Below are positions 2,466-8,577 of a DNA stretch of 43,411 nt, piece by piece (position 1 is the first letter of the stretch; every line of letters starts with the position of its first letter). Location: positions 1-43,411 of the IMG/VR virus record IMGVR_UViG_2541047907_000004, one strand, 5' to 3'. Under the pieces are notes generated by a model that worked only from the letters and a program-made list of their open reading frames with translations, had not been told where the DNA came from and ran no database searches. The stretch comes from a virus. Taxonomy: Duplodnaviria > Heunggongvirae > Uroviricota > Caudoviricetes. The position numbers and the translations under genes are program-made.

Positions 2466-4547
2466 TCAATTTATTGATAACATTTGCGCATTTGTCCCAA
2501 TTTTTGCAAATGTTGCAACTTTCCATGATGCGCCAGCAATGTCATTGCCTGAAATTGTAATTATATTGCCATCAGTTCCTGGTGCTTTGTTATTACCGAT
2601 AGTAGTCTTACCATCAATGTTTATTATTGTAATTTTCTGCCCTGGTGAGATGTAACGAAGTCTAGACAGCGTTGTATTCGATGCTTGGCTGATTGTTGCT
2701 TGTGATGTATGGGTTACTACAGGAGCCACACCAGTTATTGTATTAAAAGAACTTCCCGTCCCCCTAAACATTACACCAAAGTATATATTTTGTGTGCATA
2801 TAATCAATCTATCACCAACACCGGGGTATATTAATGATGGATCATACGCCATTTTATAGTTATTTGTTTCATGATATGTATTTTTTAGTAACAACACCTC
2901 AGCGCCAGATCCAGCTTTAACTCGCGGAGGTGTAGAGCAATAAAAATCAGCATATGATAGTAGGTCGAACATATAAGATGTAACTAAACTATTTGGATGT
3001 TCGATATCAACCCCACCTTCAAAGAATATGCTACCTGAACTTGTGCAAAAAGCTGTTCTTGGCTGCTGAGGTGATGAATTTATGTTTCTATATTTAAACG
3101 ATCCCATTACTGTAAGTGCCGCTTCTCCTGAAGACTGAAGACATGCTTGCTTAATTACCCCTTGCTGATTTGCAGTGATGTTTATGATGCCAAACTTGAC
3201 GTCAGTCCCAGCACCAACGCACAATATATTGTATGCACTAGGATCTTGACCAGGACCGGTGAAATTGGCATTGACATCACACACGCAGTTAACAGACCCA
3301 ACTGATCCTGTAGCACCATCTAAGAAATAAGAAATAGAAGAAAGACCAATACCGGATATACTCTCTATTCTAAAACCTGCTGTAGTATGAAGTTTTACTG
3401 GTGAGCACGCCAGAGGAGAGCCATCTACATATATTTCACCACAATAAAAACCCTTACCATGGCCATTTGTGTACAATGCATGACCTTCATGACCTTGCGA
3501 TGCAGTGATGTTTTTGTGATAAATACTACCTATGCGCTGATTATCAAATACAACTCCAAATACCCCGAAATCAACAGTATTAAAAATAGCTTTATCTATT
3601 TTCGCAGACACTCCTGTGAACCACACACCAGCAATAAACCCATAAACATCAATTGTATCTATATAGAACCCTGATACATCTCTATTTTCGTAATAATTCA
3701 TCCAAATTGACGCCCCATAAGATTTCCAGTCTCCAGATGTGACGTATGAATAACCGAGGGTGTTACTGCTTATAACAGCCGTTCTATCACCATTGTACTC
3801 AAACTTCCAGTATCCGAGCATTTTAACACGTGGCGTACGTACCTCAAATACAGGATACCCCCACAGCAATTGCTCAAAGATAGCATTATCAGAAATTAGA
3901 ACCATGTCAGGATTTGGAATTATAATCCACCCAGATATAGTGTATTTTAGATTTCCAAATTCTATTCTCTTTGCACCGCTATTTAGAGCAGCATTAATTG
4001 CTGCCATATCAGCAATGTAATCGCCAACACCAATAGAACCATGTTCTGCAAAGTCGGTAACAGATACTGTTTCTGAGTTTTTATCGTGTTGTGTACGTAG
4101 AACTGAGCCAACGAAAGGTTGCTTAACGCCAAGCATTGCATCACCTTTCGAGTCATCTTCAGCATATACTCCTGTTTGGGATAACTGCTGAAGAAGATTT
4201 GGTCCGAACTGATCAGGGTCATACTTCAGCACATTAGGAAAATAGAACTGCTGCGCACCATATGCATCATAAACAGCCATCGAATGACCTTGCACGGTTA
4301 CAAACTTGGCAATCTGTCCGTTATATACAGGATAACCAGCAGCGTTGATAACTATTGGCTGCGCCACCTGAACATGAGAGCCATCTTCTCGTTCCAGATA
4401 TACAGGGATCTGGTTTTCTGGATTTACCGGGTCAGTGTCAATTTTACCGATATAAATTTTGCCATTGGCAACCGCTTTAAAAGAACGCGCCATAGTGAAG
4501 AGTTGCGATGGCATACTCACTACAACATTGGCTGTAATGTCTGTCAT
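2466..4547 (-). CDS. Tailspike protein: P22 gp9-like N-terminal head-binding domain plus a divergent receptor-binding/enzymatic domain
   Basis: 693 aa; N-terminus [50 protein letters not shown]... closely matches remembered P22 tailspike N-terminus; the remainder is G/S/T/N-rich beta-helix-like and not P22-like. Confidence 0.85.
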
Positions 4548-4647: not shown

Positions 4648-5571
4648 TCAGTAGTTATGTACTGAAGGAGGTAATTCTTTATTCTTAAGTCTCATCCATG
4701 CGGAAAGATTCGTTGGTCCGTCTGGCTCATTAATATCAACATCTCGTGTGTGATTGATTAAAACGTCTCTCGCCATTCCGATAACATACGAGAATTCATG
4801 ACCGTAGTCGTAGCATCTGCCGGAATAGTTCGATTGAATTTGTTTTAATGCCGGATACAGTTCGCGGAATAATGCCTGTGAGCGGTTGGCATAATCCCAT
4901 AACCATACAAGGCTGTTTGCTTCTTTTGCAGAAAGCTCGTTTGCCTTCTTCTCTTGTTTGCCGATGAACTCACCTTCAAGTGGAACTCGAGCTGCAAGTG
5001 ACAGTGCTTCTGTAAACTGCTCCTCACTGATTTCTTTGTACGAACATCCAAAATGGGATTTCAGTGACGACCACATGGTGATCATCGCCTTCGCCTGTTT
5101 TTCTTTTGGCAGAGACTGACCGCGACTCATGACGAGTTGTTTAATGGTTTCCTGCTGTTCAGTGGTGATTTTACCCGGCAACGCCTTTTTAGCTTTGCGC
5201 GGGTTAACTACATGGCCTTTAGTCCAGTATTCGTAGAGCACATCGTCACACTCTTCCTGATACTGGATTACCTTGTCGCGGATTTCAGGGCGGACTTTGT
5301 TAGGGCTGATGGTTTGCAGCCAGCCATTCAGTTTACGTAAAGCAAGGCAAATCATGGTCTGCACACCGCCAACTGAAGGTATTGCGATTTCCACAATACC
5401 TTTAGCAAATCTTTGTTTTAACTTTGTAAACTGTGAAGCCCAATCCATACCCATACCTTCAACGATAGGTTTCATTGGGGTGTACGGCTCACCGTTGTGA
5501 TTGACAACATAAAGCTCTGCGCCGTGGAATGGTACATTGATAGTAGATACTGCTGTTGCTATACTTTTCAT
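4648..5571 (-). CDS. ant: Antirepressor (Ant-like; AntA N-terminal plus KilAC-like C-terminal organisation)
   Basis: 307-aa ORF immediately downstream of arc and upstream of the tailspike, the position of P22 ant; sequence-level assignment is from gene order and general antirepressor features, not exact recall. Confidence 0.6.
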
Positions 5572-5640: not shown

Positions 5641-5802
5641 TTACGCGCCAATGCGCCCTTCCTTCTTAAAGCTTTCCATTACTCTCTGATAAATCTCAGA
5701 GTTAACAGACCGACCATTCTCTTCCGCCACCTTGCGGACCAAATCCAATACTTCTTTAGGCCACCGCAAATTGAACTGCGGCATTTTGCTCATTCCTTTC
5801 AT
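5641..5802 (-). CDS. arc: Arc repressor (ribbon-helix-helix)
   Basis: 53 aa MKGMSKMPQFNLRWPKEVLDLVRKVAEENGRSVNSEIYQRVMESFKKEGRIGA, essentially the remembered P22 Arc sequence; the ORF-track ORF extends upstream but the Arc start is ATG at 5802. Confidence 0.9.
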   Translation of the reverse strand: MKGMSKMPQFNLRWPKEVLDLVRKVAEENGRSVNSEIYQRVMESFKKEGRIGA

Positions 5803-5818
5803 ATTCACCTCACAATAT

Positions 5819-5865
5819 GGGTCCACCGTGGACCTATTGAGAATATAGTAGAGTGCTTCTATCAT
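5819..5865. promoter_or_regulatory. immI control region: Mnt operator palindrome (gggtccaccgtggacct, 5819-5835) and Arc operator (atagtagagtgcttctatcat, 5845-5865) between divergent arc and mnt
   Basis: Perfect inverted repeat GGTCCACCGTGGACC and the 21-bp ATAGTAGAGTGCTTCTATCAT motif, both matching remembered P22 Omnt and Oarc. Confidence 0.75.
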
Positions 5866-5892
5866 GTCAATACACTAACTTGGAGTGATGGC

Positions 5893-6147
5893 ATGGCTAG
5901 AGATGATCCGCACTTTAACTTCCGTATGCCTATGGAAGTAAGGGAGAAATTAAAATTCAGGGCGGAGGCGAATGGGAGATCAATGAACTCCGAGTTGTTA
6001 CAAATCGTCCAAGATGCTCTATCAAAACCATCGCCTGTGACTGGCTATCGCGACGAAGCTGAACGCTTGGCTGATCAGCAGGCAGAGCAGTTCAAGACTG
6101 TTGTGTTTGAGACACTTAAAAAGATTTATGGCAAGGATGATAAATAA
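5893..6147 (+). CDS. mnt: Mnt repressor (maintenance of lysogeny; ribbon-helix-helix)
   Basis: 84 aa MARDDPHFNFRMPMEVREKLKFRAEANGRSMNSELLQIVQDALSKPSPVTGY..., matching remembered P22 Mnt; divergent from arc. Confidence 0.9.
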   Translation: MARDDPHFNFRMPMEVREKLKFRAEANGRSMNSELLQIVQDALSKPSPVTGYRDEAERLADQQAEQFKTVVFETLKKIYGKDDK

Positions 6148-6683
6148 TGCTGCACACAATTCATTTCTTATGCCCCGTTAACACCGCCACTGTTGGGCAA
6201 CTTCAGAACCACTGTCTCACCGCATTATCTCAAGGCGCAACTGAATTAAATATCCATATATCAAGTCAGGGAGGGGAAACTGCCGCTGGTTTTACTGCGT
6301 ATAACTTTCTTAAGTCACTCCCTGTTGCCGTTAGAACTCACAACATAAGCAATGTTGAATCCATAGCTAATATCGTTTTCCTGGCTGGCTCAGAACGTTT
6401 CGCAAACCCATTATCAAGATTCCTGTTACATCCTCTATTATGGGGCTTTGCCACCCCAGCCGCCGACCATGCCAGATTGAGAGAGTACGGGAAATGCCTC
6501 GATAACGATCTTGATCGCTTCGTTGAGACGTTCAATATCGACATCGGAACCCATATTAGGTGGGCATCCCTGATAGCAGACTCGACCATTTTGGATGCTA
6601 ACAAGGCTCTTGAGCATGGCATAATTAATTCCATAAAAACTGCAAGGCTGGTATCCAATCAGGCAAACTGGTGGGTTGTTTGA
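6147..6683 (+). CDS. ClpP-like (S14 family) serine peptidase-fold protein, translationally coupled to mnt
   Basis: 178 aa; ATG overlaps the mnt stop (TAATG); blocks HISSQGG, ISNVESIANIVFLAG and SRFLLHPLLWG align with ClpP YINSPGG, GQAASMGAFLLTAG and SRVMIHQPLGG (from memory), with Ser and His at triad positions. Confidence 0.6.
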   Translation: MLHTIHFLCPVNTATVGQLQNHCLTALSQGATELNIHISSQGGETAAGFTAYNFLKSLPVAVRTHNISNVESIANIVFLAGSERFANPLSRFLLHPLLWGFATPAADHARLREYGKCLDNDLDRFVETFNIDIGTHIRWASLIADSTILDANKALEHGIINSIKTARLVSNQANWWVV

Positions 6684-6760
6684 TGGGTAAATCATGATTA
6701 CTCCTATGGCCGGAAAGATTCGCATCCTTAAATTTAGTGAGCAAGGATTACCATCACACC

Positions 6761-6946
6761 TCAACAGCTTCCGCGTCCCTGAGTAATTCTGTCGCGGATT
6801 TGCTTCTTACGGTGGTTTAAGCTGGAGAGCTTGGCTTCTGCTTCTGATATTTGCGCATCAAGATCTTTAAGCTCAAGATCTGAAAGTCGCTGGTCAAGCA
6901 GGGTTTGGTTCAACTCAATGTTGTTCAGGCGTTCTTCTATGGTCAT
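6761..6946 (-). CDS. Small coiled-coil protein (61 aa), unknown function
   Basis: ATG preceded by AGGAG RBS; sequence MTIEERLNNIELNQTLLDQRLSDLELKDLDAQISEAEAKL... has heptad-like repeats; convergent with the ClpP-like gene. Confidence 0.4.
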   Translation of the reverse strand: MTIEERLNNIELNQTLLDQRLSDLELKDLDAQISEAEAKLSSLNHRKKQIRDRITQGRGSC

Positions 6947-7087: not shown

Positions 7088-7291
7088 ATGGAATGGATCA
7101 TAGGATTTGTTGTTCTTATCTTCATAGCCAGTATGTTTAAACCAAGAAGTTGCGATATCTGTGGTGCTGGATTTAAGAAAAAGTACTTCACATGGACTAT
7201 CGATGGAAAGAAACAGCATCTTTGTCCGTACTGCAACAGTAAAATGGAGAGACGCAACAGCGATAGACGCTTTAAGGATCGATTTGGTTAA
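7088..7291 (+). CDS. Small membrane-anchored zinc-ribbon protein (67 aa), unknown function
   Basis: N-terminal hydrophobic segment IIGFVVLIFIASMF followed by CxxC...CxxC (CDICGAG...CPYCNS); followed by a strong terminator. Confidence 0.45.
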   Translation: MEWIIGFVVLIFIASMFKPRSCDICGAGFKKKYFTWTIDGKKQHLCPYCNSKMERRNSDRRFKDRFG

Positions 7292-7306
7292 CCATTTTAT
7301 CTCCAA

Positions 7307-7337
7307 CAAAAAAACCCACCTGACGGTGGGTTTTATT
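7307..7337. terminator. Bidirectional intrinsic terminator (acccacc-tgac-ggtgggt, A-run upstream, T-run downstream)
   Basis: Perfect 7-bp stem, 4-nt loop, flanked by aaaaaaaa and ttttatt; serves convergent genes 7088-7291 (+) and 7336-7755 (-). Confidence 0.7.
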
Positions 7338-7755
7338 AGTGCTTGTATAGGTTGAACTCTCTATCAAGCCATATAACAAAAAATGTCGATCCAAGACGAT
7401 AACCAACCATGGCTTTCAAATCATCAAATCTAAAAGCCAAGAAATGATCTACGTCTTCCGTTATATGACCGGGGATACCAGCTTTAATTGCACCCCTTGC
7501 AATCTTCTCAAATCCAAGCTTATGCCTACCTTGCTGCTTAATCTCTGCCCATGTTAGTTGACTTAATCTGTATAATTTATCAGCTAAGCCAGCTTTCTCA
7601 TCTTTTTGGCATTTCGTTATGCAGTGAGAGCTTTGGATGTAACAGAATGAAAATTTCGGTTTCTTTTGATCTGAATTCCCCCCTGACTGCGGCCCTAACT
7701 TTAACTTACCTGTAGATTCAGCAGGGGGGATAATCCTTTTAGATTTTCTTGCCAT
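7336..7755 (-). CDS. Unknown 139-aa protein downstream of and coupled to the DUF4065 gene; candidate toxin/effector
   Basis: ATG at 7755 lies 4 nt after the upstream gene's stop; basic N-terminus, C-x6-C-x3-C cluster, beta-rich C-terminus ending ...GYRLGSTFFVIWLDREFNLYKH; the ORF also has an upstream in-frame start at 7830 overlapping the neighbour. Confidence 0.45.
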   Translation of the reverse strand: MARKSKRIIPPAESTGKLKLGPQSGGNSDQKKPKFSFCYIQSSHCITKCQKDEKAGLADKLYRLSQLTWAEIKQQGRHKLGFEKIARGAIKAGIPGHITEDVDHFLAFRFDDLKAMVGYRLGSTFFVIWLDREFNLYKH

Positions 7756-7759
7756 CTCG

Positions 7760-8209
7760 TTAGTTAATCCGAGTTGCAAAGTACTCTGCCATCTCCTTAG
7801 AGCTAATTTCAGAACCACCAACACCCTCAATATAGTTTGATCTCCATGGTGACTCTTCGTGTGTCATGTTCCTCAGTTTCCAGGCAGAAAATTGCCCAAA
7901 AACATCCCAGACTTCTTCTAATAGCTCTAACTGTTCTTCGCTGAATTTTTCAGCATCAAAAGACTCTGGAGAAGGGATAGCTCCATTACCATATTGTTTA
8001 TAACGGCGATAAAGCTCAGGGACAACAGGGCCATGCATCCAAGCTTCCATCTTATTCTGAAAAAGAGGCTCACCAAGCAACGCCAATGAAAACCCCTGAG
8101 CATAGTAAACAAGCTTTTGTAATTTTAAATTAGAGATTGTGTCACCGCTATCCTCGTCACACCGCGACAGGAAGTAGTCGGCGACATCAAAACAAGTAAG
8201 CATGAACAC
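7760..8209 (-). CDS. DUF4065 / Panacea-domain protein (GepA/SocA-like), candidate antitoxin
   Basis: 149 aa; GGAGG RBS 5 nt upstream of ATG; motif block NLKLQKLVYYAQGFSLALLGEPLFQNKMEAWMHGPVVPELYRRYKQYG matches my recollection of the DUF4065 family signature. Confidence 0.65.
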   Translation of the reverse strand: MFMLTCFDVADYFLSRCDEDSGDTISNLKLQKLVYYAQGFSLALLGEPLFQNKMEAWMHGPVVPELYRRYKQYGNGAIPSPESFDAEKFSEEQLELLEEVWDVFGQFSAWKLRNMTHEESPWRSNYIEGVGGSEISSKEMAEYFATRIN

Positions 8210-8577
8210 ACCTCCATCTTGATAGCCACAGCTAAGTATCCAACTATGTCAAATGTCATTTAATACTATAACAAAGCTATCAGCAATCCTTCGGAGGCTA
8301 ACTTACAACCACTTTAGCGACATGTTTAAACCATTACGTTTCACATTTACTGCATTTTCGCCGAAGTTACCTATAAGGTAATGTCACATTTCCTGCAAGT
8401 TTCATGCAATGTTGAAAAGTGAGCTATTCACTTTTCTATGACACTAAACACCAAAAATAGCACTTTTTGCTAAATCATTCGTCCAAGTTGTGGATGGTTT
8501 GTCGTTGACACGTTTTCACACACCACTCCACCAATAAAGTATCATCTGGTATCCTGCTCAAAACTAAGGAGGTTGGT

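Follow-up and report, generated by a model that had tools for sequence, protein, structure and literature searches.

What is a gene for a ClpP-like peptidase doing directly behind the repressor gene mnt of a P22-like prophage? The locus lies in the IMG/VR virus record IMGVR_UViG_2541047907_000004, whose positions 1 to 43,411 (the window) are an integrated P22-like prophage. The open reading frame (ORF) in question, ORF178, codes for 178 amino acids (aa) on the + strand (6147-6683), and on profile, fold and alignment evidence its product is a short peptidase subunit of the ClpP1 type, similar to PpClpP1, the ClpP1 of Pseudomonas plecoglossicida (PDB 9uxt; Chen et al., PLoS Pathog, February 2026; PMC12900304). 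We consider it highly probable that ORF178 is a prophage-carried member of this short 'ClpP1-type' subfamily of ClpP paralogues. Judging from the characterised homologue, its most likely role is that of a partner or modulator of the host ClpP.

ClpP fold, active site and closest relative of ORF178

A first-pass annotation of the window, made from the sequence, had proposed that ORF178 aligns with the ClpP core, and the motifs that it quoted do align. The Pfam model CLP_protease (PF00574) matches residues 24-165 of ORF178 on model positions 37-180 of 182, scoring 46.1 bits where the gathering threshold is 20.2 (E=6.8e-12). An AlphaFold2 model of ORF178, built from an alignment of 37 relatives, has a predicted local distance difference test score (pLDDT) of 93.3 and a predicted template modelling score (pTM) of 0.89. 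With this model Foldseek returned ClpP structures alone from the PDB, Escherichia coli ClpP (1yg6) being matched with a template modelling (TM) score of 0.83, a root mean square deviation (rmsd) of 2.2 Å and 21% identity. The alpha/beta fold of ORF178, with its handle helix, is that of ClpP.

Alignment with hhalign places Ser72 (codon TCC, 6360-6362, + strand), the predicted nucleophile, on Ser97 of E. coli ClpP and His95 (CAT, 6429-6431, + strand) on His122, and the SxGG motif of the oxyanion loop is in register with canonical ClpP. At the position of the catalytic Asp171, ORF178 has Ser146 (TCG, 6582-6584, + strand) and therefore lacks the canonical triad of Ser, His and Asp. The earlier expectation of a ClpP fold whose catalytic positions hold Ser and His is thus borne out. 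We tabulated these positions in 261 relatives, comprising 63 of the enterobacterial type, 119 of the Pseudomonas type and 79 that a genome scan supplied. All of them (261/261) have Ser and His at the positions of Ser72 and His95, whereas Asp was found in 0/261 at the third position, which is occupied by A, S, T, P or G, with three Glu and one Arg. The choice varies with the group: Enterobacterales have A/S/T; Pro predominates in Pseudomonas and Ala in Massilia. Two acidic residues of the handle helix, Glu113 (6483-6485) and Asp121 (6507-6509), are also invariant in 261/261 and are without equivalent when ORF178 is aligned with E. coli ClpP. In PpClpP1, D121 is among the residues predicted to line a bortezomib pocket near the active site. 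Either E113 or D121 might replace the lost catalytic acid.

ORF178 begins at the first core strand, its alignment with mature E. coli ClpP being offset by ~25 residues, and about 24 N-terminal residues, i.e. the axial loops and helix A, are therefore missing, as the first-pass annotation had noted. Positions 1-36 of the Pfam model are mostly unmatched accordingly. The hydrophobic pocket by which ClpP receives the IGF/LGF loops of its unfoldases is made up, in E. coli ClpP, of Y60, Y62, F82, I90, M92, F112, L114 and L189. The equivalent residues of ORF178 are N35, H37, S57, H65, I67, F85, N87 and K164, so that 6/8 of the positions facing ClpX or ClpA are polar, and ORF178 alone is not expected to dock either unfoldase. 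The absence of the Asp, of the N-terminal region and of the docking pocket is established directly.

ORF178 shares with canonical E. coli ClpP (MEROPS S14) the fold, the handle helix, the Ser/His pair and the SxGG motif. It differs in having no axial loops or helix A, in the replacement of Asp171 by Ser, in the polar pocket and in an identity of just 21%, and so departs from a canonical ATP-dependent ClpP subunit in three features that define it (triad, axial loops and docking pocket). Scores for the NCBIfam clpP equivalogs likewise stay far from their cut-offs (TIGR00493, 21.9 against 308.6 bits; PRK00277, 33.6 against 249). The RefSeq name 'ATP-dependent Clp protease proteolytic subunit' is misleading for this protein.

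A much closer relative is found in PpClpP1. In a search of the PDB with the family profile, 9uxt was matched with E=3.7e-50, the next match being at 1.7e-13 and canonical ClpPs at ~1e-13. Foldseek superposes the ORF178 model on 9uxt with a TM score of 0.94 and an rmsd of 1.5 Å at 38% identity, and the two sequences are 38-40% identical across 99% of their length. PpClpP1 is N-terminally truncated and carries the residues Ser73-His96-Pro151 (PMC12900304). ORF178 matches it in length (178 against 183 aa, with equal N-terminal truncation), in the positions of Ser and His, in a non-acidic third residue and in the loss of the ClpX-docking features. A Trp-containing C-terminal strand, with the motif NWWV in ORF178 (~6666-6677), is conserved between the two and in the subfamily. 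All sequence-level hallmarks of the PpClpP1 class are hence present in ORF178. The genomic settings differ, since PpClpP1-type genes are monocistronic, chromosomal and located near stress-protein genes, whereas ORF178 is carried by a prophage behind a phage repressor.

Biochemically, PpClpP1 forms a homotetradecamer with an axial pore of 42.7 Å, and its activity on peptide substrates is ~13-fold below that of the canonical paralogue (PMC12900304). Ser73 and His96 are essential for this activity while the third residue is dispensable (PMC12900304). PpClpP1 binds neither ClpX nor acyldepsipeptide (ADEP) (PMC12900304), which together with the polar pocket makes a stand-alone association of ORF178 with ClpX or ClpA unlikely. 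With canonical ClpP, PpClpP1 assembles into a stable heterotetradecamer which is more active and is served by ClpX via the canonical ring; the activity gain reported for this PpClpP1P2 hybrid in the presence of ClpX is just slight (PMC12900304).

Compromised rings of this kind have precedents in the second ClpP paralogues that function solely within hetero-tetradecamers. Examples are Listeria ClpP1 (with Ser-His-Asn), ClpP1/P2 of Mycobacterium and Chlamydia, and ClpP2 of P. aeruginosa. The likeness to ORF178 is one of concept, namely a ring with a non-canonical triad that is activated by a canonical ring. These paralogues retain the N-terminal region and are chromosomal housekeeping proteins, whereas ORF178 is truncated and phage-borne; its family matches them at the general ClpP level (~1e-11 to 1e-13). 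To our knowledge, no second ClpP of the Listeria, Mycobacterium, Chlamydia or P. aeruginosa type occurs as phage cargo.

Coupling to mnt and mobility of the cassette

The gene upstream of ORF178, mnt (5893-6147, + strand), encodes an 84-aa ribbon-helix-helix repressor of the Arc/Mnt family that belongs to the immI region (Pfam Arc, 4.9e-30; Repressor_Mnt, 3.5e-12) and is 85% identical to Mnt of P22 (tblastn). As first described, ORF178 begins on the stop codon of mnt. Reading the + strand from 6133 to 6149, a Shine-Dalgarno-like AAGGA (6133-6137) is placed 9 nucleotides (nt) 5' of the ORF178 start codon, and in the sequence ATAATG the base A6147 is common to the mnt stop (TAA, 6145-6147) and the ORF178 ATG (6147-6149). 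This physical coupling is not a peculiarity of one mnt allele. The junction AAGGAT(G/A)A(T/A)AAATAATG is kept in phiv205-1, PhiR12, EC.P3 and Pectobacterium, behind divergent Mnt alleles that are just 40-68% identical.

A consensus scan of the arc-mnt region detected overlapping divergent promoter-like sites (5837-5870), namely a Pmnt-like site at 5837-5865 (+ strand) and a Pant-like site at 5870-5842 (- strand), with 10/12 and 11/12 consensus matches. The arc-mnt DNA including these sites is 94-95% identical to that of P22 and epsilon34, in which Pant, Pmnt and the operators are annotated. A pattern scan revealed no terminator-like site between mnt and ORF178 nor just past ORF178, where the fold z-score is -0.59. 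Because of the stop/start overlap, the Shine-Dalgarno sequence, the absent terminator and the P22-like promoter region, the sequence implies that ORF178 is co-transcribed with mnt. Pmnt is known from P22 genetics to be active in lysogens. By analogy with P22, we infer that ORF178 is transcribed from Pmnt in lysogens and made together with Mnt.

In P22, orf59a lies directly behind mnt in the mnt transcript and is followed by a terminator and then by sieA with its own promoter. The first-pass annotation had placed ORF178 in the slot of sieA. This is correct as far as the cargo interval between mnt and gene 16 is concerned, but strictly ORF178 occupies the orf59a position of the transcript, the P22 sieA being located further on with its own promoter. 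ORF178 resembles the genes of the P22 orf59a/sieA interval, lambda bor and sieB in being a small cargo gene in a variable slot, probably transcribed in the prophage state, although its sequence is unlike SieA or Orf59a; similarity to these two proteins was sought across the entire window and none was found.

A profile search recovered 229 clusters (50% identity) of the family at E<=1e-30, nearly all of which are single-domain proteins of 180-200 aa; such an exhaustive search for domain fusions as hints of function therefore offered almost none. The genomic context of the family follows two patterns. In Pseudomonas and Azotobacter the gene stands alone on the chromosome, surrounded by genes of ordinary metabolism and genes for stress proteins. 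In Massilia and Telluria it is located between purine-catabolism genes and pilB/pilC (match at ~8001-8546 of the loci), with xanthine dehydrogenase, 5-hydroxyisourate hydrolase, a PuuE-like deacetylase and pilB/pilC as neighbours. This neighbourhood is conserved in most of the ~60 genomes from the scan, indicating long vertical inheritance there. In Enterobacterales and Chromobacterium the gene is prophage-borne, and its slots are diverse. In P22-like prophages of E. coli, Pectobacterium (79% identity) and Providencia (65%, with a 30-nt gap) it is directly behind mnt; in Klebsiella (58%), Leclercia (73%) and a second E. coli type (53%) it lies on the opposite strand between lysis genes and terminase; in Proteus (55%), again on the opposite strand, between N and the erf/ssb genes; and in Chromobacterium between the tail-fibre and lysis genes of a myovirus-like element. 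Since the slot does not track sequence similarity, the gene hops between slots. No partner gene is kept across the prophage contexts of the family, and neighbour clustering over 79 genome loci in search of a conserved partner gave just the Massilia housekeeping neighbours.

In E. coli the moving unit can be delimited. A cassette of ~599 base pairs (6107-6705, + strand) begins within mnt, of which it includes the final ~13 codons and with them the ribosome-binding site, and extends over ORF178 to 22 nt beyond it. Its boundaries (query 215-813 of the window segment 5893-8300) recur in many E. coli genomes with different flanks and are identical in phage records. An arrangement identical to that of the window is present in strain EPSSH018. 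ORF178 is 99% identical behind Mnt alleles that are just 40-45% identical to the Mnt of the window. It is present in 128/5426 complete E. coli genomes, and 6/59 phage records with this arc-mnt DNA carry it. The gene is intact, and its ratio of nonsynonymous to synonymous substitution rates (dN/dS) against the Pectobacterium orthologue is 0.08, indicating purifying selection. Gene integrity and selection are direct results of the comparisons, and so are the fold, the conservation of Ser and His, the coupling with mnt and the cassette's mobility. Being a discrete cassette of variable presence, found in several slots and with an orientation independent of the late operons, ORF178 is a moron, i.e. 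an optional, mobile accessory gene, which on the P22 analogy would be expressed in the lysogen.

In other E. coli prophages the slot downstream of mnt is occupied by a Panacea toxin-antitoxin pair or by an immunity gene of the Rap1a/Tai family. In E. coli ETEC1747 (NZ_CP122722.1, 1997980-1999189), the mnt-downstream gene is annotated as such an immunity protein (type VI amidase-effector, Rap1a/Tai family), which suggests that the slot is a general hot spot for lysogen-protective cargo. Among lambda-like phages, those of the PhiR12 group have the ant-arc-mnt-ORF178 block inserted as a whole between the tail genes K and L. Escherichia phage PhiR12_1 (PV340549, 3565-5577), a siphovirus, thereby has a complete immI-type module in its tail-tip genes, an unusual place for an immunity module.

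Possible roles in the lysogen

On the model of PpClpP1, the following mechanism can be proposed for ORF178. The protein would assemble into heptameric rings which, on their own, would be wide-pored, weakly active and ATPase-independent, unable to recruit an unfoldase. Such a ring would stack on a ring of the canonical host ClpP, giving a hybrid tetradecamer that ClpX or ClpA could feed solely from the host-ClpP face. The net outcome would be a retuning of Clp-dependent proteolysis in the lysogen. Both the assembly of rings and the hybrid with E. coli ClpP are modelled on the homologue, and we put this mechanism forward in full tentatively, rating its chances as somewhat short of even.

Several points weigh against it. 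Hybrid formation is extrapolated from a protein of another genus with 38-40% identity, whose third active-site residue is Pro151 in place of Ser146 of ORF178. The slight gain of the PpClpP1P2 hybrid with ClpX implies that the effect on physiology may be a small one or of another kind. The invariant E113 and D121 could point to an active site that works differently. Finally, production of ORF178 in lysogens is itself deduced from P22.

A role in superinfection exclusion or defence, as proposed by the first-pass annotation, would require that a gate-less, wide-pored peptidase degrades unfolded incoming phage proteins, such as ejection proteins, or an early phage protein, or that it turns host ClpP against the invader. 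The slots of ORF178 and its relatives (mnt to gene 16, N-proximal in Proteus, lysis to terminase) are those that classically house lysogen-expressed exclusion or protection genes, and elsewhere in E. coli the mnt-downstream slot is occupied by the Panacea pair or the Rap1a/Tai immunity gene. The prophage of the window is devoid of both sieA and orf59a, and the open pore of 42.7 Å in the homologue would admit unfolded chains in the absence of an ATPase (PMC12900304). However, ORF178 matches no family of PADLOC-DB 2.0 at E<=0.1, and the literature that we searched yielded no report on ClpP-like prophage exclusion or defence. PpClpP1 alone leaves casein and GFP-ssrA undegraded, and its deletion results in growth and motility defects, with no phage phenotype (PMC12900304). 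Moreover, in practically all Massilia sampled, and in many Pseudomonas, the subfamily is chromosomal and vertically inherited, at a distance from prophages and defence islands, which is suggestive of a general role in proteostasis rather than a dedicated antiviral one. We therefore regard exclusion or defence as an unlikely function. A bolder version, in which a cellular short ClpP was captured by a phage into its lysogeny operon and excludes superinfecting phages through the ungated face of a hybrid with host ClpP, seems to us distinctly improbable. If true, such an ungated hybrid would represent a new protease-hijacking class of prophage-encoded immunity, with unfolded ejection or early proteins as examples of its targets.

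A role specific to immI is similarly improbable, or slightly more so. Here the peptidase would clear leaky Ant (or Arc), back up the repression of Pant by Mnt and thus stabilise lysogeny. The association with immI is indeed close: by annotation, 28/30 of the E. coli matches listed also cover the Arc-family (mnt) gene, the coupling persists where the Mnt alleles differ greatly, the arrangement recurs in P22-like prophages of Providencia and Pectobacterium, and in the PhiR12 phages the ant-arc-mnt-ORF178 block has been relocated as a unit. Yet the relatives in Leclercia (73%), Klebsiella (58%) and Proteus (55%) reside in prophages where ant, arc and mnt are absent from the vicinity, the chromosomal relatives exist without any immI, and most P22-like phages keep lysogeny without ORF178.

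ClpP-type prohead proteases (PHROG 94, NF045542) are also phage-encoded ClpP-like cores without axial loops, and ORF178 could be viewed as a displaced or fossil domain of this kind, gained by recombination and now functionless. PHROG 94 (head maturation protease) is its best PHROG match (E=1.3e-20), the NCBIfam models of ClpP-related head-maturation proteins score slightly over those of cellular ClpP, and the gene is labelled 'head maturation protease' in phiv205-1 (MN340231). Head assembly in P22 follows a protease-free pathway. We reject this reading, the least credible of all, because location, selection and scores contradict it: prohead proteases are encoded in head modules, often as fusions with scaffold or capsid domains, whereas the single-domain ORF178 lies in the immunity/cargo region, outside the morphogenesis cluster as the first-pass annotation had stated; the contiguous P22-type portal, scaffold and coat genes of the window contain no protease gene; NF045542 is matched with 49.1 bits against a cut-off of 120; viral structures reach <=24% identity as compared to 38% for the bacterial PpClpP1; and the ORF is intact, with a dN/dS of 0.08 and Ser and His invariant across genera. 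The GenBank name in MN340231 is accordingly misleading for this gene.

Neighbouring genes and meaning of the finding

The window opens with a formate/nitrite-transporter gene of the host (1-933) and the integrase gene (1209-2402), followed on the - strand by the genes for the tailspike (2466-4547) and by ant (4648-5571) and arc (~5641-5802). The virion module is of the P22 type, with portal, scaffold, coat, gp7 and gp20. Beyond ORF178 the cargo interval holds several small ORFs. One of them (6761-6946, - strand) encodes a 61-aa coiled-coil protein (phrog_7586), named 'hemolysin XhlA family' in some RefSeq records. Another, within 7088-7334 (+ strand), encodes 67 aa with an N-terminal hydrophobic segment and a CxxC...CxxC zinc-ribbon, and 3' of this ORF a strong hairpin (7311-7334), flanked on either side by T/A runs, could be a bidirectional transcription terminator. 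A further ORF (8578-8907, + strand) codes for a 109-aa protein with an N-terminal transmembrane segment and a coiled coil (phrog_5962) and adjoins gene 16, which is the position of sieA in P22. The 706-aa protein in the gene-16 position (8908-11028, - strand) has no Pfam match at E<=0.001 and is 49-70% identical to gp16 of phiv205-1 and P22 only over parts; it is thus a divergent ejection protein.

Between these ORFs, on the - strand, lies a Panacea/SocA-like antitoxin gene (7760-8209; Pfam SocA_Panacea, 1.9e-24), followed 4 nt downstream by a 139-aa ORF (ATG at 7755, end at 7336; phrog_8366) that has a weak match to the C-terminal part of PADLOC NsnC (1.4e-5). Together the genes at 7336-8209 look like a PanA-toxin pair with an uncharacterised putative toxin. 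In phiv205-1 (MN340231, 6735-7180) the antitoxin homologue matches as two pieces in different frames, which may reflect a frameshift or a sequencing error; its toxin partner there is intact and 99% identical. The first-pass annotation had speculated that ORF178 acts with this SocA-like neighbour. The pair is found near ORF178 in phiv205-1 and EC.P3 alone, is missing from the PhiR12, Pectobacterium, Providencia, Klebsiella, Leclercia and Proteus contexts, and adjoins mnt without ORF178 in other E. coli prophages. As the genes co-occur in a minority of contexts, cooperation between them is unsupported, and we have rejected the partnership.

What was already known of ORF178 is its annotation by homology in RefSeq and MN340231 and, since 2026, the protein class to which it belongs. 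The papers on phiv205-1 deal with whole-prophage phenotypes only, the description of PpClpP1 makes no mention of phages (PMC12900304), and we found no earlier description of this truncated ClpP class in phages in the searchable literature. The occurrence of the ClpP1-type class as cargo of Enterobacterales phages, wired into the lysogeny-maintenance operon of P22-like prophages, appears to be new.

Phages inhibit or borrow the proteases of their hosts. A prophage that supplies its own subunit for the ClpP ring during lysogeny is, in contrast, undescribed in the searchable literature. If ORF178 hybridises with E. coli ClpP, the Clp machine would be altered in ~2% of complete E. coli genomes; APEC O1 and the type strain DSM 30083 are among the strains that bear the gene. 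The consequences, if the proposal is true, could reach stress responses, virulence regulation, the activation of toxin-antitoxin systems and the competition between phages. Formation of such a hybrid would also reframe the PpClpP1 class, as a mobile module instead of a Pseudomonas curiosity.

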